From: Lutibacter sp.
Lineage (GTDB): Bacteria; Bacteroidota; Bacteroidia; Flavobacteriales; Flavobacteriaceae
Assembly: GCF_013139515.1 (NCBI RefSeq)
Contig: NZ_WTAR01000020.1
Location: 988-64,987, forward strand
Direction of reading: 5' to 3'
DNA length: 64,000 bases
Shown here piece after piece: positions 1 through 34,623 of the stretch. Numbering within the stretch: position 1 is the first letter of the stretch; each line of letters opens with the position of its first letter. Both the position numbers and the translations under genes were made by a program. Under the pieces are notes generated by a model. It worked only from the letters and a program-made list of their open reading frames with translations, searched no databases and had not been told where the DNA came from.

Positions 1-680
1 ACATTATCATACACACATAATCTTGGAAAAAATTGAGCAATAACATAACTATTGTTTCCATCTAAAGGAAAATGTTCAAAACCAGAACGGCCACCTTGAC
101 TTACATGATTGTTTATATTATACCACCATTTAATTTTAAACGAATGTGTTGCGCCTGATACTAAAGGTTCATCTAAATTTAAACGCATCATTGTTTGATT
201 GATTATATACGATGCATCACTATCATCAATATTTTTTACATATTCAATTTTAAAACCACCATCAAAAGGGTCTTCTATAAAAGTTTCTGAAAACTTTGAA
301 GGAGAGTATAATACACTTGCACCACTACCTTGTATATCGTTTGTTTTTGAATCTGAAGCACGCATATTTTGATCTAGTTGTATCCATAAATACTCTAAAT
401 TATCTGTTGAATTATTATGATATGTAATAGTTTCTTCTCCATAAATCCGTTGGTTATCATCATCTAAAATAATATCCATTTTATAATCAACTTGTTGTTG
501 CGTGTATTCATAACCTGGGGCTCCGGAAGCAGTGTGTTGACTGTTGGGAGTAGGTAGTTCTTCGCTAAGTTGTTTAAATTTACTGGTATTATAATGCCCT
601 TTTTGTCTTTCAACTTCTTGAGCAATAGTTATATTAACTAAAAATAACAGAGATATTAAAATGTATATTATTTTTTTCAT
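1..680 (-). CDS. M1 family metallo-aminopeptidase, N-terminal part (runs off the window start)
   Basis: Manual translation from ATG at 680: MKKIIYILISLLFLVNITIAQEVERQKGHYNTSKFKQLSEELPTPNSQHTASGAPGYEYTQQQVDY...; closely paralogous to the N-terminus of 766..3027; signal peptide; not in ORF track. Confidence 0.9.
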   Translation of the reverse strand, partial: MKKIIYILISLLFLVNITIAQEVERQKGHYNTSKFKQLSEELPTPNSQHTASGAPGYEYTQQQVDYKMDIILDDDNQRIYGEETITYHNNSTDNLEYLWIQLDQNMRASDSKTNDIQGSGASVLYSPSKFSETFIEDPFDGGFKIEYVKNIDDSDASYIINQTMMRLNLDEPLVSGATHSFKIKWWYNINNHVSQGGRSGFEHFPLDGNNSYVIAQFFPRLCVYDN

Positions 681-730
681 AAGTGTTTTAATTAATTTTT
701 AAGATTTCTAAAGTAAGTAATATTTTATAA

Positions 731-757
731 AAGAAAAAACCACTCAAAATGAGTGGT
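731..757 (-). terminator. Intrinsic terminator between the two M1 peptidase genes
   Basis: ACCACTCA-aaa-TGAGTGGT stem (739-757) followed by a U-tract on the minus strand. Confidence 0.7.
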
Positions 758-765
758 CATACTTT

Positions 766-3027
766 TTATCCTTTAATTTGGTTTCGTTTAAATTGCTCAA
801 ACTTATTTTCTTTATTTTTTGGCCAGCTGTTGTTTGTTAAATCTACATCAGCAGTTTGTTCATCAGGATCTACAGTAATCTTTGAAATTGCTTTGCTTGA
901 TGGGAAGACTTTTGTTACTTCATTATCATTCAAACTCCAAATTTCAGCCGGATATTGCTTACGTTCTTTGGTGCCATCTTCGTATTCAAATTCAACAATA
1001 ATTGGCATTACTAAATCACCTGGTTTTTCAAAAACTAATTCATAAAAATATTTAGGAGCCTTTAACGTAGCTTTTTCTTCTGAAGTAAAGTTTTGTTCAA
1101 CATAATCGCTTAATAAATTGTAATCCTCAGGTTTTTTCTTTTTCAAATTTTTATTGAATTCTTTGCTGTCTTCAGAAACTAAATATAAAGAAGGTGGTAA
1201 TTGATCCACAGTAATTCCGTAAGCTTTTGCCATGTTTTTAGCACGTTCAGTTGGTTTATCTGTTACATAGAATTTTTTAACTTCTTTTATACCAATATCA
1301 GTATTTCCAGTAGTATAAAACCAACCTCTCCAAAACCAATCTAAATCCATTGCAGAAGCATCTTCCATAGTTCTAAAAAAATCTGCAGGAGTAGGATGTT
1401 TAAAAGCCCAGCGTTTTGAATACGTTTTAAAAGCGTAGTCAAATAGCTCAGGTCCCATAATGGTTTGTCTTAAAATATATAAAGCAGCAGCAGGTTTTGC
1501 ATAAGCATTTGATCCGAAATTTAAAACTGTACCACCTTGAGACATAATTGGGGAAAGTTTACTTTGATCTCCAGACATATATCTAGTAATATCTTTAGCG
1601 GTGCTTTTCATTGGGAATAATTCTGAATCGTATTTGTATTCAGCTAAAATTTCAATAAAAGAATTTAAACCTTCATCCATCCAAGTCCATTGACGTTCAT
1701 CTGAATTTACAATCATAGGAAAAAAGTTATGACCAACTTCATGCGTTACAACACCAATCATACCTTTTTTTGTTCTTTCAGAATATTTTCCATTTGTATT
1801 TGGCCTTCCATAATTCCAGCAAATCATAGGATATTCCATTCCTTGACGTTTTGCATTAACCGATGTTGCATGCGGATATGGATAATCAAATGTATGTTCT
1901 GAATAGATTTTTAAAGTATTAGCTACAACTCTTGTTGAATGTTCTTCCCAAAGCGGATTTCCCTCATTAGGATATAATGAATATGCCATTACAGTTTTAT
2001 CATTTAATTTAACAGCCATAGCGTCCCAAATTAATTTACGCGAACTTGCAAATGCAAAATCACGAACATTTTCAGCATATATTTTCCAAGTTTTTGTTTT
2101 ATTAGATTGCCCTTTTTCTGCTTCAAGTGCTTCTTCAGGAGTTACAATAAATACAGGATTATTATAAGAAGTGTTTGCTTCAACGTACCTTTTATATTGT
2201 TTGTTTGTAAATACATCTTTAGGGTTTTGAATTACACCAGTTCCATTTAAAATATGATCTTTAGGTGTTGTAATTGAAACTTCATAATTTCCAAATTCTA
2301 AAGCAAACTCACTTCGTCCCCAAAACTGCATATTCTGCCATCCTTCAACGTTATTATACACCGCTAAACGAGGGAAAAATTGAGCAATAATGTATAAGTT
2401 ATTTCCATCAGGAAATGGTTCGTAACCAGATCTACCTCTTATTGATGTGTAATCGTTAATATTATACCACCATTTTATATTGAATATAAATTTTTCACCT
2501 GAAGCTAAAGGTATAGTTAAATCAACACGCATCATAGTGTTGTTTATCATATAATGTAAGTCATTACCTGAAGCATCTGTAATATATTCAATATTAAAAC
2601 CTCCTTGAAAAGGTTTTCCCATAAATTGTTTTGTAAATTTTGAAGGAGAATATAAAGCATCTGGGCCACCACCTTTTATTTCGTTAGTTTTTGAATTTGG
2701 AGCACGCATATTTTGATCTAGTTGCACCCATAAATAGTCTAAATTATCTTTAGAATTATTGTGATATGTAATAGTTTCTTCACCAAAAAGTTTATTATTT
2801 TTTTCATCTAAAATAATGTTCATTCTATAATCAACTTGTTGCTGGGTGTATTCATAACCAGGAGCACCAGAAGCAGTGTGCTGTTTGTTTGGTGTTGGCA
2901 ACTTGTCTTTTAGCTGCTTAAATTTACTAGTATTGTAATGTGATTTTTGTCCTGGTTTTACTTCTTGGGCATAAAACGATGTTGATATGCATGCAATTGA
3001 AATTGCTAAAATGAATATTTTTTTCAT
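766..3027 (-). CDS. M1 family metallo-aminopeptidase, secreted
   Basis: GMEYP exopeptidase motif, HEVGH...E zinc motif (HEVGHNFFPMIVNSDERQWTWMDEG), signal peptide. Confidence 0.92.
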   Translation of the reverse strand: MKKIFILAISIACISTSFYAQEVKPGQKSHYNTSKFKQLKDKLPTPNKQHTASGAPGYEYTQQQVDYRMNIILDEKNNKLFGEETITYHNNSKDNLDYLWVQLDQNMRAPNSKTNEIKGGGPDALYSPSKFTKQFMGKPFQGGFNIEYITDASGNDLHYMINNTMMRVDLTIPLASGEKFIFNIKWWYNINDYTSIRGRSGYEPFPDGNNLYIIAQFFPRLAVYNNVEGWQNMQFWGRSEFALEFGNYEVSITTPKDHILNGTGVIQNPKDVFTNKQYKRYVEANTSYNNPVFIVTPEEALEAEKGQSNKTKTWKIYAENVRDFAFASSRKLIWDAMAVKLNDKTVMAYSLYPNEGNPLWEEHSTRVVANTLKIYSEHTFDYPYPHATSVNAKRQGMEYPMICWNYGRPNTNGKYSERTKKGMIGVVTHEVGHNFFPMIVNSDERQWTWMDEGLNSFIEILAEYKYDSELFPMKSTAKDITRYMSGDQSKLSPIMSQGGTVLNFGSNAYAKPAAALYILRQTIMGPELFDYAFKTYSKRWAFKHPTPADFFRTMEDASAMDLDWFWRGWFYTTGNTDIGIKEVKKFYVTDKPTERAKNMAKAYGITVDQLPPSLYLVSEDSKEFNKNLKKKKPEDYNLLSDYVEQNFTSEEKATLKAPKYFYELVFEKPGDLVMPIIVEFEYEDGTKERKQYPAEIWSLNDNEVTKVFPSSKAISKITVDPDEQTADVDLTNNSWPKNKENKFEQFKRNQIKG

Positions 3028-3092
3028 GGGTAGTTAATTTGTGAAAAATGTTTTGAAAATTAATTATTTTAAGTAAGATAAAGTGTAGTTGC

Positions 3093-3590
3093 TTAAAAAT
3101 TTAACAAACCTTTATCATTTTTAGCTGTTAAATAAAATGTTTTATGAATTTTGTTTGCTTTTATTTTAACAATATTTTGTTGATCTTTAAAATCTTTAAA
3201 AAGGAAATTATTAATAATTTCTATAGATTTTATTTTCTCAATATTGGTTATTTCTAAGTAAAAACGAACAATATCATCATCATATTCTTTTCCAATATAT
3301 ATATAAGGTTTTAAGCTATTATTTACTGTAATTTTAAAGTGTTTGTTTAGATATGATTGATAATATTCGTCAATATTTTCAACTTCTTGTTTTGTTGCTA
3401 GGTTAAGTGTTTTTTTATGATTTTTATTAAGTGTAAACTCAAGATCATCAATAAAAAGACCAACTGTTATCTGAAGCGTATTTTGTTCTTCATTATGTTC
3501 AATTTCACATAAACTTATGTAGTATTTGTGCATAGTAAATGCAACTAACGGAATAAAAAAAAGGATATATAAATATTTTCTAAGATTCAT
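3093..3590 (-). CDS. DUF6702-like conserved Bacteroidota protein
   Basis: HKYYISLCEI motif after a signal peptide; typical neighbour of M1 peptidases in flavobacteria. Confidence 0.65.
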   Translation of the reverse strand: MNLRKYLYILFFIPLVAFTMHKYYISLCEIEHNEEQNTLQITVGLFIDDLEFTLNKNHKKTLNLATKQEVENIDEYYQSYLNKHFKITVNNSLKPYIYIGKEYDDDIVRFYLEITNIEKIKSIEIINNFLFKDFKDQQNIVKIKANKIHKTFYLTAKNDKGLLNF

Positions 3591-3654
3591 TCAAATTTAT
3601 TTTATGGCTAATAAACAAAAAGCATTTTAAAGGACACATATTTAATGTAAATTA

Positions 3655-4422
3655 TTATTTCTGAATTAATTTAAACTCTTTAGATTGTTTTATTAAGAAG
3701 TTTTTAATAACAATTTCTTCACTTTTATAGAAATCTAGCAAACCATTTCCTTCACAATAATCTAAAAATAAATAGATATTCTCTACGGAAATATGTAATA
3801 CGTCGCTAAAAAAAGTTGCATCATATTCATTTTTAATTTTAGTAGAAAATTCAGCTCTAAGCTTTTTACTTTTTTCAAGTTCTAGTTTTTGATCTAACTT
3901 TCTTGCTTTTCTTTTTAAACGAGATTTTTTTGTTAGCATCATAAATAAAGCAATTGGGTTTAAGCCACCAGCATTAGCATTTGGGTCGGTTAATTTACGT
4001 GCATTTGGTGGTTTGTTATTTGAAATTTTATCAGTGCGAAGAATTGTACCTTTGGTAACTGCTGCTTTGCTCCAATCTAAAAATATTTTTTTTGCTAACA
4101 TTACTTCTTCTAACTGATAATAATCGGGTTCTAAATAAATTGTTATTTTTTTAGATTTTAAATGCGTTTTTGAAATTATAATATTTCTATTTGTGTATAC
4201 AAGTGATGAAAATAAAATAGAATCACCTTCCATGGCTAAAATGGTAAAACTCCCATTTTTATCACTGGCTCCACCTAAGAGTGTCATTTTATTTGAGATA
4301 TTAATATCAGGTAAATACATGGAATTGTATTTTACAGTTCCTTCAAGTTGTATTCTTTGTTGTTGAGCGTTTGTTTTTAAGAATATAAATACTAAAACAA
4401 AATATAGAATTTTTAATTTCAT
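3655..4422 (-). CDS. Carboxypeptidase-regulatory-like domain protein
   Basis: Signal peptide followed by SDKNGSFTI...GDSILFSSL...LEEV pattern. Confidence 0.6.
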   Translation of the reverse strand: MKLKILYFVLVFIFLKTNAQQQRIQLEGTVKYNSMYLPDINISNKMTLLGGASDKNGSFTILAMEGDSILFSSLVYTNRNIIISKTHLKSKKITIYLEPDYYQLEEVMLAKKIFLDWSKAAVTKGTILRTDKISNNKPPNARKLTDPNANAGGLNPIALFMMLTKKSRLKRKARKLDQKLELEKSKKLRAEFSTKIKNEYDATFFSDVLHISVENIYLFLDYCEGNGLLDFYKSEEIVIKNFLIKQSKEFKLIQK

Positions 4423-29725: not shown

Positions 29726-30166
29726 TTAAAGTTTTAAAATATAAGTTAAAGCTTTTTTTAAATTTAATTGAGCTTCATTAGACAACTTTATTTCAATATT
29801 CCAATGATATCCTTGTATTTCAAATGTATATGATTTAGGTTTTTTATTATAAACGGTTTCACATAAATACAAAATTTGATTTGGAGGCACAGCATGTGTT
29901 GAAAAATTCACTTCTTTTGAAGGTGTTAATTCTGAAATAGAAAAACCTTGTTTTAAATTATTTCTCGAGGCATCAATAAAAAAAACTGTATCATAATTTG
30001 AAATTAAATCGGCATCTTCTACCATTAATTGATATTTGTAAATTAAATTATTTGTATTAAACCCTTCTTTCTCTAGTAAATCTAGAAAACACCAGCCAAG
30101 GCCATCGTCTTGGCGAGTGTTGTTTCCAATACCAATAAAAAGTGTATTATTATCTAATTTTTTCAT
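29726..30166 (-). CDS. hoxW: Hydrogenase maturation protease (HoxW type)
   Basis: GIGN..R.DDGLG, FIDAS, STHA motifs; overlaps the 3' end of hoxH. Confidence 0.88.
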   Translation of the reverse strand: MKKLDNNTLFIGIGNNTRQDDGLGWCFLDLLEKEGFNTNNLIYKYQLMVEDADLISNYDTVFFIDASRNNLKQGFSISELTPSKEVNFSTHAVPPNQILYLCETVYNKKPKSYTFEIQGYHWNIEIKLSNEAQLNLKKALTYILKL

Positions 30167-31601
30167 CGAGTAAATTTCCGTTGTTATCTTCTAATTGGCC
30201 AATTAAAGGCATTTGCCCCAAGGCGTGCGTTGCACAACTTAAACAAGGGTCGTAAGCTCTAATAGCCATTTCAATTTGGTTTAACATGGGCTCAGTAATT
30301 TCAGGTTTGTCATTTAGGATGCTTTCTGATACTGTGCGCACACCTTGGTTGATTGCTTCATTATTAAAAGTAGTTGAAACAATTAAATTACATTTTGTAA
30401 TTAAGCCTTTATCATCAATATGGTATTCGTGAATTAGCGTACCTCTAGGAGCTTCAATAATCCCAATTCCTTTGTTTCTTGGAGTTCCTTTTCTAACTAA
30501 ATCATTGCCCATAATATCTTTGTCTAACAAAAGCTCTTTCATATTTTCTGCACAATGTAACAATTCAATTAAGCGAGCCCAATGTGTATGCATTGTCATA
30601 TTGTTGGGTTTATTTTTGGTGTATGCTTTAAATTGTTGGCGTTCAATTTCAGCGAGAGGTGTTGGAATGTGAGAACATGTATTTAAACGTGCTAATGGTC
30701 CAACTCTGTTCCAACCTTTTTCTCTTCCGTATTTGGTCATATATGGAAATTTTAAATACGACCATGCTTCAACACCTTCTTTAAAATGATTTCTATATTC
30801 AATATCTTCAATATTGAGAAGCTCTTTTCCTTTAGAATCAATAGATCGAATATGACCATCATACAGCTCTAAAGCACCAGATACTTTATCTACCAATCCT
30901 AGATGATTTGATGGATAAGCCGCAAAATTATCTACCCATTCGCTGTTTTCAAGATGAAAAGATTTCATAAAATCAATTATTTCTTTAGACCAAGAAATCA
31001 TAGTATCTATATTTGGAATTTGTTTTCCATCTAAGAAATACTCAAGTTGTTTGGGTGTAAAAGCTTTATGAACACCACCTGGAACAGCTAAAGTTCCGTG
31101 AATTTTTTTACCAGATAAAGAGGTAATAATTTCTTGACCAAACTTTCTCATTAAAATTCCTTTTTTTGCAAGCTCTCTATTCTCAGTCGCAACCGCAACA
31201 ATGTTTCTTTTTTCAACAGGAGCATCAATTCCAAATAACAAATCTGGTGAAGCTAAATAGAAAAAATGCAATGCATGAGATTGAAAAACTTGTCCGTAAT
31301 GTAATAATTTTCGAAGTTTAGTTGCCGTAGGAGATAAATTTTCCGGGTCTATCCCAACTAGTTGGTCAATGGCTTTTGCAGCAGCCAAATGATGACTAAC
31401 AGGGCAAATTCCGCATAAACGTTGTACAATAATTGGTACTTCCCAGTACGGATGTCCTTGAATAAATTTTTCAAACCCTCTAAATTCTACAACATGTAAA
31501 TAAGCATCACTTACTTTACCATTCTCATCAATTTTTATGGTTACTTTTCCGTGTCCTTCAACACGAGTAACAGGATCTATGGTGATTTTTTTTGGTTTCA
31601 T
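30150..31601 (-). CDS. hoxH: [NiFe]-hydrogenase large subunit, group 3d (HoxH)
   Basis: TRVEGHG, L1 RLCGICPVSH, EAPRGTL.H, L2 DPCLSCATH followed by a 24-aa cleavable tail. Confidence 0.95.
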   Translation of the reverse strand: MKPKKITIDPVTRVEGHGKVTIKIDENGKVSDAYLHVVEFRGFEKFIQGHPYWEVPIIVQRLCGICPVSHHLAAAKAIDQLVGIDPENLSPTATKLRKLLHYGQVFQSHALHFFYLASPDLLFGIDAPVEKRNIVAVATENRELAKKGILMRKFGQEIITSLSGKKIHGTLAVPGGVHKAFTPKQLEYFLDGKQIPNIDTMISWSKEIIDFMKSFHLENSEWVDNFAAYPSNHLGLVDKVSGALELYDGHIRSIDSKGKELLNIEDIEYRNHFKEGVEAWSYLKFPYMTKYGREKGWNRVGPLARLNTCSHIPTPLAEIERQQFKAYTKNKPNNMTMHTHWARLIELLHCAENMKELLLDKDIMGNDLVRKGTPRNKGIGIIEAPRGTLIHEYHIDDKGLITKCNLIVSTTFNNEAINQGVRTVSESILNDKPEITEPMLNQIEMAIRAYDPCLSCATHALGQMPLIGQLEDNNGNLLDEKIR

Positions 31602-31619: not shown

Positions 31620-32882
31620 TTAATCATATTTAAATTCTGGATATGCAATCGTTAATTCTTCTTCAAATAAAATATTTTTGACTACGTTCCAAATATGATT
31701 TGAATTTGGTGGACAACCTGGGATATGATAATCTATTTTTACAATTTCATGATTGGAATAAACTTTATCTAAAATTTTTGGAATGTCTTCATGATTGGGA
31801 ATTACCGATTCATTTTCTTCACTTGTTAAGGAATTTAAATAGGCTTCATTTAAACAATCTTCTAATGGTATGGTATTTCTAAGTGCAGGTAAACCTCCCC
31901 AAATTGCGCATTCCCCAACTGAAACTAAAATATCACAATTTTCTCGAAAGGCTCGTAATACTTCAAAATTATGAGTGTTACTAACACCGCCTTCAATAAT
32001 TCCAATATTGCATCGTTTGCTAAATTTCTTAATATCTGTAAGTGGTGTTTTGTTAAATTCTACTACTTCAATAAGATCAACCAAGCCTAAATCTATATCT
32101 AATAATGACATATGGCAACCAAAACAACCAGCCAATGAAGTGGTTGCGACACGTTTTTTTTGACCATTACTATTGTTTTTGTTGATTTTGTTAAAAGGAA
32201 TTGTTTTTCCTTCAATACCTTGGTCAAACATTCTATTTCCAAAAGGTTTACTTACAGATTTTCCTTTAACTAAAATTGAACCAGTAGGGCAAATTTGCAT
32301 GGCATATTCGGCTTGAGATTCGCTTAGTTTGGCTTCCTGTTCATAATCAACTGTAACAACTGTTTTGTTTCCTTTATTTAAAAAATTAAATACTTGGTAT
32401 CTATCATTGGTTTTTATTTCTTCAAAACAGCGTTTACATTTAATACATCTGTTTTGATTTACAACAATTCTTTCAGCCTTGGCATCAATAAATCGTTCTA
32501 CAAATAAATGTGGAAACCTTGTATACCGTATGCCTGTTTCGTAACCTAGTTTTTGCATTTGACAATCACCACTTTTTTCACAAGAAGGGCAAAAGTGATT
32601 TCCTTCTACAAACATCATTTCTAAAATAGCTTTTCTAGTATCTAGTAATTCAGGTGTATTTACCTCAATATCCATTCCTTTGTCAATATTTATAGTGCAT
32701 CCAGCAGTAGCACGTCCATTGAGTTTCACCGTGCAAACTCTGCAACTTCCCAAAGGATTTTGTTGTTTGAAGTGGCACAATGAAGGAATAAATATTCCGT
32801 TTTGTTTTGCAGCCTCAATAAGGTTTTTACCTTTTTCAGCACTACAAGTTCTTCCGTCTATATTAAATGATACATTTTCCAT
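31620..32882 (-). CDS. HoxU-HoxY fusion (diaphorase Fe-S subunit plus hydrogenase small subunit)
   Basis: Likely start MENVSF at 32882; HoxU motifs SLCH..GSCRVC..GC, HFCPSCEKSGDC, CIKCKRC..CPTG; then HoxY motifs LAGCFGCH, IEGG, GECA, PGCPP in one 420-aa frame. Confidence 0.9.
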   Translation of the reverse strand: MENVSFNIDGRTCSAEKGKNLIEAAKQNGIFIPSLCHFKQQNPLGSCRVCTVKLNGRATAGCTINIDKGMDIEVNTPELLDTRKAILEMMFVEGNHFCPSCEKSGDCQMQKLGYETGIRYTRFPHLFVERFIDAKAERIVVNQNRCIKCKRCFEEIKTNDRYQVFNFLNKGNKTVVTVDYEQEAKLSESQAEYAMQICPTGSILVKGKSVSKPFGNRMFDQGIEGKTIPFNKINKNNSNGQKKRVATTSLAGCFGCHMSLLDIDLGLVDLIEVVEFNKTPLTDIKKFSKRCNIGIIEGGVSNTHNFEVLRAFRENCDILVSVGECAIWGGLPALRNTIPLEDCLNEAYLNSLTSEENESVIPNHEDIPKILDKVYSNHEIVKIDYHIPGCPPNSNHIWNVVKNILFEEELTIAYPEFKYD

Positions 32883-32898
32883 TTTAGTTATTTTAGAA

Positions 32899-34623
32899 CT
32901 ACAGTTGTGTTTCTTTAATAATACTATCGTATTCTTGAATAGCACTTTCCATGTCAAATTCAACATGTTGATTTTCATGTAGTGGAGATATTTTCAGCTT
33001 GAAATAATCTTCAAATTTAGCTATAGACGTTACTAGTGAATTTGGAGATGATTTTCCCAATCCACAACGACTGGAAAGTTGTATAATAGTTCCCCATTGT
33101 TTAATTTCATCAATATCATTTTGAGTACATAATCCACGCTCAAATTTTTTAATTTTCTCATATAAAATTTGATTTCCAGCTCTACAAGGTGTGCAAACAC
33201 CACAAGATTCTGTTTTGAAAAATTTCATAAAGTTTTTCTGAATTTGAAGAATACTGCGTGATCTATTAAAAATCATAATAGAACCACCACAAATAAGATC
33301 TTCTTTACAAATTTTTCGATCAAATTCAGAACTGTTGATACAGCTTCCTGAAGGACCGCTAATTTGGATATAATAAGGAGAAAGGCCTTCGCATAATTTC
33401 AATAAATCTCTAATAGTTGTTCCCCATTCAATTTCATAGATTCCAGGTTTTGCAACATCTCCCGAGATGCTTAATAATTTTGTTCCTTTACTTTTTTCTG
33501 TTCCAATAGCAGAAATAAAATTGCTTCCAAGCTCAATTATTCTAGCTGCTTTTGCAAAGGTTTCAACATTATTTACCACTGTTGAATATCCTAAATAACC
33601 AACTTCTGTTGGAAAAGACTTTTGAATACGAGGTTCTCCACGTTTGCCTTCTAAAGATTCAATGAGTGCTTTTTCTTCACCACAAACATAAGAACCTGCA
33701 CCTAATTGTATTTCAATATTAAAATTGAAATTATCAATACCAAGAATAGTTTTACCTAAGAACCCTTTTTTATGAAATTCTTGAAGTGTGCTTTCAAGTT
33801 TTTCTAGCAAATATGCGTACTCAGCTCGTAAGTAAATATAACCTTTTGTAGCACCAGTAATAAATGCGGCAATTATCATTCCTTCTAGAATCAATCCTGG
33901 ATTGTTTTCTAACAGTGCTCTATCTTTAAAAGTACCAGGTTCACCTTCATCTGCATTGCAAATAATGAACTTTTTTGTACTGTTACTTTCTTGGCAATAC
34001 TGCCATTTTTTTGCTGTTGGAAAAAAGGCGCCACCACGTCCAGCTAATTTGGCTTTTGAGATGAGGTTTAAAATTTTGTTAGCACTTGAGTTTTGTAATT
34101 TTTTTATTGAATTTCCTAGTATGTAGTTTCTAAAAAATACGGTTTTATCATCAGTAGGAGTATACTGAATTTTACTTGTAACAGTGCTTGAAATGGTGTT
34201 TAATTGAGTACCATTCTTTAATTGTTTAATAATTTTCACAACCTTCTTGGGTGTTAAATTGGTAAAAGGTTGAAAGTTGATTAAAGCGGCAGGTTCTTGA
34301 TCGCTCAATCCAATACAAGAAGTTTCAAAAAGAGTGAATAACGGATTTTCATTGTATGCACCAAAAGTACAACCTGTTTCTTTTTCAAACGCAGCTTTTA
34401 TTTGCTGAAACCCTTTGAATTCTGAGACAATACTGTTGTTTAAATAAATAATAAATTTACCAGTAGGCTGTTGGTGAAAGAAATGATAAAAAGTGACAAC
34501 TCCTTCAATTTCTGTAGTTGAAACTTTTAATGTTTTGGCTATTTCTTTAATTGCATTTTCTGAAATATAACCGTGCTTATTTTGAAATTCCCAAAGTTTG
34601 TTTAATAGGTCTGTTCTTTCCAT
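32899..34623 (-). CDS. hoxF: NAD(H)-dependent diaphorase flavoprotein subunit HoxF
   Basis: NuoE-like N-domain (TFYHFF, CIGLSDQEPA), GRGGAFFPT, CNADEGEPGTFKDR, GAGSYVCGEE, ESCGVCTPCR..C. Confidence 0.93.
   Translation of the reverse strand: MERTDLLNKLWEFQNKHGYISENAIKEIAKTLKVSTTEIEGVVTFYHFFHQQPTGKFIIYLNNSIVSEFKGFQQIKAAFEKETGCTFGAYNENPLFTLFETSCIGLSDQEPAALINFQPFTNLTPKKVVKIIKQLKNGTQLNTISSTVTSKIQYTPTDDKTVFFRNYILGNSIKKLQNSSANKILNLISKAKLAGRGGAFFPTAKKWQYCQESNSTKKFIICNADEGEPGTFKDRALLENNPGLILEGMIIAAFITGATKGYIYLRAEYAYLLEKLESTLQEFHKKGFLGKTILGIDNFNFNIEIQLGAGSYVCGEEKALIESLEGKRGEPRIQKSFPTEVGYLGYSTVVNNVETFAKAARIIELGSNFISAIGTEKSKGTKLLSISGDVAKPGIYEIEWGTTIRDLLKLCEGLSPYYIQISGPSGSCINSSEFDRKICKEDLICGGSIMIFNRSRSILQIQKNFMKFFKTESCGVCTPCRAGNQILYEKIKKFERGLCTQNDIDEIKQWGTIIQLSSRCGLGKSSPNSLVTSIAKFEDYFKLKISPLHENQHVEFDMESAIQEYDSIIKETQL

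Follow-up and report, generated by a model that had tools for sequence, protein, structure and literature searches.

Gene, strand and domain layout

The 64,000-nucleotide stretch analysed here (the window) belongs to Lutibacter sp. (assembly GCF_013139515.1, contig NZ_WTAR01000020.1, positions 988 to 64,987 of the forward strand). It carries hoxUY, a gene in which the counterparts of the [NiFe]-hydrogenase subunits HoxU and HoxY are joined. The original prediction, made from the DNA letters, had placed an uninterrupted HoxU-HoxY frame of about 420 amino acids (aa) at 31620-32882; exactly these coordinates were recovered from the open reading frame (ORF) and from the starts of its homologues. 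The gene is composed as follows.

31620..32882, minus strand: hoxUY, one ORF of 420 aa in which the HoxU and HoxY parts are fused; stop codon at 31620-31622
32223..32882, minus strand: HoxU part, residues 1-220; Pfam Fer2_4, NADH-G_4Fe-4S_3 and Fer4_Nqo3; corresponds to 5xf9_B residues 12-229
32160..32222, minus strand: linker QGIEGKTIPFNKINKNNSNGQ, residues 221-241; columns ~244-272 in an alignment of 32 sequences
31623..32159, minus strand: HoxY part, residues 242-420; Pfam Oxidored_q6, 2.6e-25; corresponds to 5xf9_C residues 12-189, E 2.5e-47

The linker string IPFNKINKNNSNGQ was found within residues 221-241 (window 32160-32222). A plus-strand reading of 31620-32882 was rejected because its translation is full of stops, and the gene was assigned to the minus strand. 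The ORF call at this place was 31620..32978(-), with 452 aa. Its upstream start at 32978 was dropped, since it would overlap hoxF by 80 nucleotides (nt) and the second Met is where all homologues start. A length of 417-430 aa, the same architecture and an N-terminus at this second Met (MENVSF...) are common to more than 100 homologues. The start was placed at 32882 because of these homologue N-termini and the spacing of 16 nt from the hoxF stop.

Domain assignment was performed with Pfam, using the numbering of the 452-aa call. Fer2_4 was found at 34-108 (4e-15), NADH-G_4Fe-4S_3 at 115-153 (4e-13), Fer4_Nqo3 at 171-234 (9e-7) and, after a gap, Oxidored_q6 at 285-434 (3e-25). When the 420-aa protein was compared to the solved structures of the PDB, residues 5-221 matched HoxU (5xf9_B) and residues 241-420 matched HoxY (5xf9_C). 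The top NCBIfam models for the HoxY half were hydrogenase small subunits.

Cluster ligands

Conservation was analysed with an alignment of 32 sequences with 59-80% identity to the query. The full HoxU cysteine sets and the four HoxY cysteines reported earlier for this frame were all present, and the 16 presumed cluster ligands, 12 of them in the U part, were invariant (16/16). They are distributed over four clusters.

C36, C47, C50, C62: [2Fe-2S], U part
H96, C98, C101, C107: His-ligated [4Fe-4S], U part
C146, C149, C152, C198: second [4Fe-4S] of the U part
C253, C256, C325, C390: proximal [4Fe-4S], HoxY part

The proximal [4Fe-4S] is the only cluster of the HoxY part, which was aligned end to end with 5xf9_C. 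No ligand was gained or lost, and the electron wire would therefore be unchanged by the fusion. At residues 298-301 the sequence reads EGGVSN here, EGGCCN in most members of the fused clade and EGGVCN in HoxY of 5XF9. The cysteines of EGGCCN are nearly conserved across the fused clade though they are not ligands, as judged from EGGVSN here and EGGVCN in 5XF9.

Hydrogenase operon and class assignment

The fused gene is part of an operon hoxF-hoxUY-hoxH-hoxW, entirely on the minus strand, with spacers of 16 nt and 18 nt between the first three genes and an overlap of 17 nt between hoxW and the end of hoxH. The other members are listed below.

32899..34623, minus strand: hoxF, 574 aa; Pfam 2Fe-2S_thioredx 4.5e-34, Complex1_51K 4.8e-43 and NADH_4Fe-4S 1.5e-22
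30150..31601, minus strand: hoxH, 483 aa, [NiFe] large subunit; Pfam NiFeSe_Hases, sequence motifs and 5xf9_D
29726..30166, minus strand: hoxW, 146-aa maturation endopeptidase; NCBIfam TIGR00072 hydrog_prot 5.8e-17, 62 bits (cut-off 47)

HoxF, the diaphorase large subunit, combines a NuoE-like [2Fe-2S] thioredoxin-like domain, a NuoF-like domain binding flavin mononucleotide (FMN) and NAD(H), and a [4Fe-4S] domain; the NCBIfam match was nuoF_fam with 5.6e-105. HoxH carries the N-terminal motif RLCGICPVSH and the C-terminal motif DPCLSCATH, which is followed by a 24-residue C-terminal extension for proteolytic maturation. Its best match in the PDB was 5xf9_D (6.6e-150), ahead of 7t2r_D (4e-134) and MvhA 5odc_F (1.3e-112).

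The sequence features that characterize group 3d enzymes were found with one exception. The large subunit has RxCGxCxxxH and DPCxxCxxH and is nearest to HoxH by motifs and PDB search. The small subunit is of the short HoxY type, with a proximal [4Fe-4S] only, and HoxU resembles the N-terminal part of NuoG, with binding sets for one [2Fe-2S] and two [4Fe-4S]. A gene for a NuoF-like HoxF lies in the same operon, 16 nt upstream of hoxUY, and a HoxW endopeptidase is accompanied by a cleavable C-terminal extension of HoxH. Gene order and the best match to 5XF9 thus agreed with the group 3d-type hox setting proposed from the DNA. The exception is the canonical presence of HoxU and HoxY as separate polypeptides of separable HoxFU and HoxYH modules, which are one ORF here. 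The fused state touches the subunit composition and not the catalytic membership.

An enzyme of another class, either of the 3b/3c type or a bifurcating one like NiFe-HydABCSL, for which the names HoxU and HoxY would be wrong, was considered very improbable. The best NCBIfam names, VhuA for HoxH and VhuG for the HoxY part, are those of group 3c, all with scores below the cut-offs, and the bifurcating NiFe-HydABCSL (7t2r) was the second-best structural relative. Against such a class stand the 5XF9 chains as top match for all three parts and the U part of ~220 aa, which has the length of a truncated HoxU, unlike the 692-aa HydA. Moreover, the fusion of NuoE and NuoF in HoxF is typical of soluble NAD-reducing hydrogenases, and no heterodisulfide reductase or F420-type partner was found in the operon neighbourhood.

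Distribution of the fused gene

When the protein was searched against 5.8 billion proteins by word index, 1245 matches were obtained. All of the best 120 clusters at 90% identity (120/120) carry both domain sets in ~420 aa, with identities of 60-89%. Additionally, one genome per species was scanned by tblastn, resulting in 77 loci; each match was translated and its U and Y halves were located by phmmer. In every Flavobacteriaceae locus a single ORF spanned the two halves (among them Lutibacter type strains, Winogradskyella, Seonamhaeicola and Gelidibacter). Isolates with the fused ORF include Lutibacter flavus DSM 27993, L. oricola DSM 24956, L. maritimus DSM 24450, L. litoralis JCM 13034 and Winogradskyella vincentii. 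All loci from Planctomycetota, Desulfuromonadaceae, Hydrogenedentota, Spirochaetota, Gemmatimonadota and Methylococcales had two ORFs, as had those from Chitinivibrionales, Cyclonatronaceae and a Bacteroidales metagenome-assembled genome (MAG). Full-length tblastn matches in Planctomycetota, Spirochaetota, Methylococcales and others were rejected as fusions, since a frame check identified them as split genes with the alignment crossing a stop or a frame change.

The continuous frame might be ascribed to an assembly or sequencing artefact of a MAG in which a stop or a frameshift was lost. The assembly consists of 157 contigs, is 90% complete and is AT-rich in this region, with A-runs in the linker. 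Such an artefact was effectively refuted by the occurrence of the same frame in 180 homologues from independent assemblies and isolate genomes; neither the assembly sequence nor these homologues contained a stop or frame change, including at the junction.

In an even sample of the phylum, the fused gene was present in 6 of 401 genomes, comprising that of the window, three more from its class and two from other classes. Closely related split pairs, with Y halves 52-58% identical, occurred in 5 of the 401, and the fused gene was found in none of the 28 other sampled genomes of the window's own family. The source names of the fused proteins were Lutibacter, Saprospiraceae, Cyclobacteriaceae and Chitinophagales. 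The fused hydrogenase is therefore patchy within Bacteroidota, and this hydrogenase lineage is fused wherever it is present in Flavobacteriales, Chitinophagales and Cytophagales. The databases hold hundreds of the fused proteins under generic or half-correct names, such as '2Fe-2S iron-sulfur cluster-binding protein', 'NADH-quinone oxidoreductase subunit B family protein' and 'diaphorase moiety small subunit'.

Evolutionary origin

A maximum-likelihood tree of the concatenated U and Y parts was calculated under LG+C20+F+G4 from 53 sequences thinned to <80% identity. A branch supported at 100/100 set all 34 fused sequences apart on a long stem of 0.8 changes per site, and one state change explains the fused Bacteroidota clade. 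The nearest relatives on the tree were split pairs from a Bacteroidales MAG, two other Bacteroidota genomes, Chitinivibrionales and Cyclonatronaceae.

HoxU of most split relatives terminates in ...R.YD..PIGS(D/E)IE (plus 0-8 aa), and their HoxY starts with M-x-K-P-x-(I/V)-A-T; the spacer between the two genes ranges from -10 to +60 nt. HoxU tail and HoxY head together have about the length of the linker (~13 plus 11 residues in 5XF9 against 21), so that losing the hoxU stop, either alone or together with a small indel, would be a sufficient route. Judged from the tree and these gene ends, the Bacteroidota fusion most probably arose once, via loss of the hoxU stop codon in an ancestor within the lineage, and was most probably inherited or exchanged within Bacteroidota afterwards.

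The PIGS(D/E)IE tail was observed in split HoxU of many phyla (loci L011, L012, L014 and L068-L086) and is gone from the fused clade, where a variable linker is found instead. The tail was lost after fusion. It may have been a docking element that was made redundant by the tether.

Read-through of the stop in split species was also considered and was rejected, as 9 of the 26 split loci had hoxU and hoxY in the same frame, close to the third that chance alone would give. In the same-frame loci (L068-L073, L076, L009 and L010), a single stop and 0-12 codons lie between the genes, so that one point mutation would fuse them.

An exhaustive phmmer search of 1.84 billion representatives at 50% identity recovered one representative of the Bacteroidota fused clade (P0122, 55% identity) and several distant full-length proteins of the same architecture with 28-38% identity. 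The distant fusions were the following.

P0137 = WP_176064234.1, Anaeromyxobacter diazotrophicus: distant HoxU-HoxY fusion
P0126, L096:5001-6251, GCA_036824045.1 (MAG): fusion between hoxF and hoxH; sister to split Methylococcales sequences
P0127, L097:685-1917: fusion between hoxF and hoxH
P0128: distant fusion with the same domain order

On the tree these proteins fell outside the Bacteroidota clade, interspersed with split sequences, and the well-supported branches force at least four state changes. Fusion of U and Y is therefore recurrent, and the tree points to at least three further independent fusions beyond the Bacteroidota clade. The original prediction had singled out the fusion as a noteworthy feature; it is genuine, but it is not special to this genome, being conserved across a Bacteroidota clade and recurrent elsewhere.

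Proposed enzyme

A group 3d [NiFe]-hydrogenase, soluble, bidirectional and NAD(P)-linked, is proposed in which one polypeptide takes the roles of HoxU and HoxY, with a single origin of the fusion; a probability of roughly 0.85 was assigned to this reading, which draws on sequence comparison. By homology with the Hydrogenophilus enzyme, H2 would be cleaved at the Ni-Fe site of HoxH. Electrons would pass from HoxH to the proximal [4Fe-4S] of the HoxY part and on to the two [4Fe-4S] of the HoxU part, beside which the [2Fe-2S] would lie. From there they would reach HoxF, with its [4Fe-4S] and FMN, for the reduction of NAD(P)+; the reverse direction would be possible. The assignment also draws on homology with the NuoG/NuoB part of complex I.

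By the fusion, the HoxU tail, the stop codon, the short spacer and the first HoxY residues would be exchanged for a flexible linker of ~21 residues. The tether would fix a 1:1 stoichiometry of U and Y and join the diaphorase and hydrogenase modules. The holoenzyme is likely to consist of three structural polypeptides, HoxF, HoxUY and HoxH, as originally predicted and in line with the gene content. In biological terms hoxUY is an ordinary gene fusion, and a change of mechanism is not expected.

Several points weigh against this reading. The first concerns the fate of the linker. In the alignment of 32 sequences, a conserved PFGxRxFD closes the U part, and a conserved KKxVATxSLAGCFGCHMS opens the Y part. 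The linker between them, ~20-30 aa and of varying length, is the sole hypervariable stretch, with zero conserved positions. An AlphaFold2 model of the fusion from this alignment gave a predicted local distance difference test score (pLDDT) of <50 for residues 221-237, which suggests that the linker may be flexible. A hypervariable stretch with predicted disorder is a typical protease-accessible segment, and the operon contains the endopeptidase gene hoxW. The fusion could be translated and the linker then cut, or an internal start could be used, either of which would result in an ordinary four-subunit HoxFUYH enzyme. However, HoxW-type proteases are known to cut the C-terminus of the large subunit and not linkers. 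Moreover, neither a conserved cleavage motif in the linkers of the 32 aligned sequences nor a conserved in-frame start codon (ATG, GTG or TTG) in these sequences and the window DNA was found. The open frame has been kept over ~40% divergence and was reinvented elsewhere, which argues that the covalent link is tolerated or selected. Processing to four subunits was therefore regarded as improbable, and we infer that the linker of the one-chain HoxUY is left uncut after translation.

Secondly, the AlphaFold2 model as a whole (mean pLDDT 65, predicted template modelling score 0.42) was too poor to support a relative placement of the U and Y halves. Thirdly, the top NCBIfam model for the HoxU half was NF005745, 'bidirectional hydrogenase complex protein HoxU' (164 bits, E 3.5e-48; model positions 2-216 of 238), at a score below the curated equivalog cut-off of 333 bits; by this comparison the HoxU part is a homologue, but no close orthologue, of cyanobacterial HoxU, without equivalog-level membership. 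Finally, the total of 180 fused against 28 split pairs over the retrieved sequences comes from a fused set that was gathered with this protein as query and is therefore biased to one clade.

Genome context

The genes flanking the operon are unrelated and code for an M48 peptidase, a major facilitator superfamily transporter, a flavin adenine dinucleotide oxidoreductase, a DUF5020 protein and a TonB receptor. No hyp genes were found within the 64-kb window. The C-terminus of HypD and a HypE-like gene were located at the end of another contig of the same genome (G000:C61:1815-3380, L092). A further contig (G000:C74:25781-27340, L093) codes for a second [NiFe] large subunit, which matches PF00374 over the full length (800 bits) and probably belongs to an uptake-type hydrogenase. 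With hyp genes elsewhere in the genome, maturation functions are available in trans, and the hox operon probably shares them.

Two tandem hoxF paralogues were observed 5' of hoxUY in 12 Lutibacter loci (about 200-3990 in each of L019, L021, L022, L023, L025, L036, L041, L043, L045, L048, L052 and L055). The single hoxF of the window is closer to the distal than to the adjacent paralogue (936 vs 812 bits for L043). The tandem copies might represent two nucleotide specificities.

Implications

Soluble NAD-reducing hydrogenases are used in H2-driven cofactor regeneration, where the partial loss of subunits during purification was named as a possible problem (for example, PMC12809855). That the covalent tether is adaptive rather than neutral, having been invented at least four times and having replaced the conserved putative docking tail PIGS(D/E)IE of HoxU, was rated as improbable. 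If it were adaptive, the enzyme would be a natural three-subunit soluble hydrogenase with non-dissociating modules, maybe sturdier towards dilution, oxygen and salt than the Cupriavidus type, and a possible scaffold for H2-driven recycling of NAD(P)H. The greater stability and biotechnological appeal of the fused enzyme, suggested with the original prediction, are speculation.

HoxUY from culturable, oxygen-exposed marine flavobacteria (Lutibacter, Winogradskyella) offers a ready test of module linking, and the fused clade provides a design template with a linker of ~20-30 residues and defined junction points. Annotation pipelines seeking a separate hoxY would score the fused genomes as lacking a hydrogenase small subunit because the fused protein is inconsistently named.

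Comparison with known systems

A full-text literature search, with subscription-only papers outside its reach, brought up no account of a naturally occurring HoxU-HoxY fusion. Where the term 'hoxUY' is used in papers, two neighbouring genes of cyanobacteria are meant, and for a Cyclobacteriaceae MAG hoxF, hoxU, hoxY and hoxH were simply listed (PMC12942990). The question raised at the outset, whether the fusion is already the described norm for its clade, was thus answered in part: it is the norm, with all of the best 120 clusters fused, but no paper describing it was found. The fusion is real, conserved and already in the databases, and apparently undescribed.

The best relative is HoxFUYH of Hydrogenophilus thermoluteolus (PDB 5XF9/5XFA), with E-values of 1e-37 for HoxU, 2.5e-47 for HoxY and 6.6e-150 for HoxH. 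The cofactor-binding residues are the same, and HoxF is likewise a NuoE+NuoF-like fusion in that enzyme; identity is moderate. HoxU (242 aa) and HoxY (189 aa) form two chains there, as had been stated beforehand for canonical enzymes and as the 5XF9 structure confirms, whereas a covalent linker of 21 residues stands here for the last ~13 residues of HoxU and the first ~11 of HoxY.

The prototypes, HoxFUYHI2 of Cupriavidus necator and HoxEFUYH of cyanobacteria, consist of the diaphorase HoxF/HoxU and the hydrogenase HoxY/HoxH, with HoxW as protease (PMC12809855, PMC9414918). The module logic is the same here, but the operon is without HoxI and without a separate HoxE gene. With U and Y as one chain, dissociation into HoxFU and HoxYH would not take place.

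The split pairs L082, L011, L013, L079 and L081 (Bacteroidales, other Bacteroidota, Balneolota Cyclonatronaceae and Fibrobacterota Chitinivibrionales) form the sister group, with 45-58% identity per half. They have the same order hoxF-hoxU-hoxY-hoxH-hoxW, but with two genes, a stop and a spacer. The HoxU tail PIGS(D/E)I/V is present in L011, L079 and L081, divergent in L013 and L082 and lost in the fused clade. The independent fusions P0137, P0126, P0127 and P0128 share the domain order and a length of ~410-455 aa with HoxUY and are only 28-38% identical to it.

In the electron-bifurcating NiFe-HydABCSL from Acetomicrobium mobile (PDB 7T2R), HydA has in its N-terminal domain a homologue of the U part, HydS is a homologue of the Y part and HydL one of HoxH. 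HydA of that enzyme comprises 692 aa with extra clusters, and the small subunit, HydB and HydC are separate (PMC8880783).

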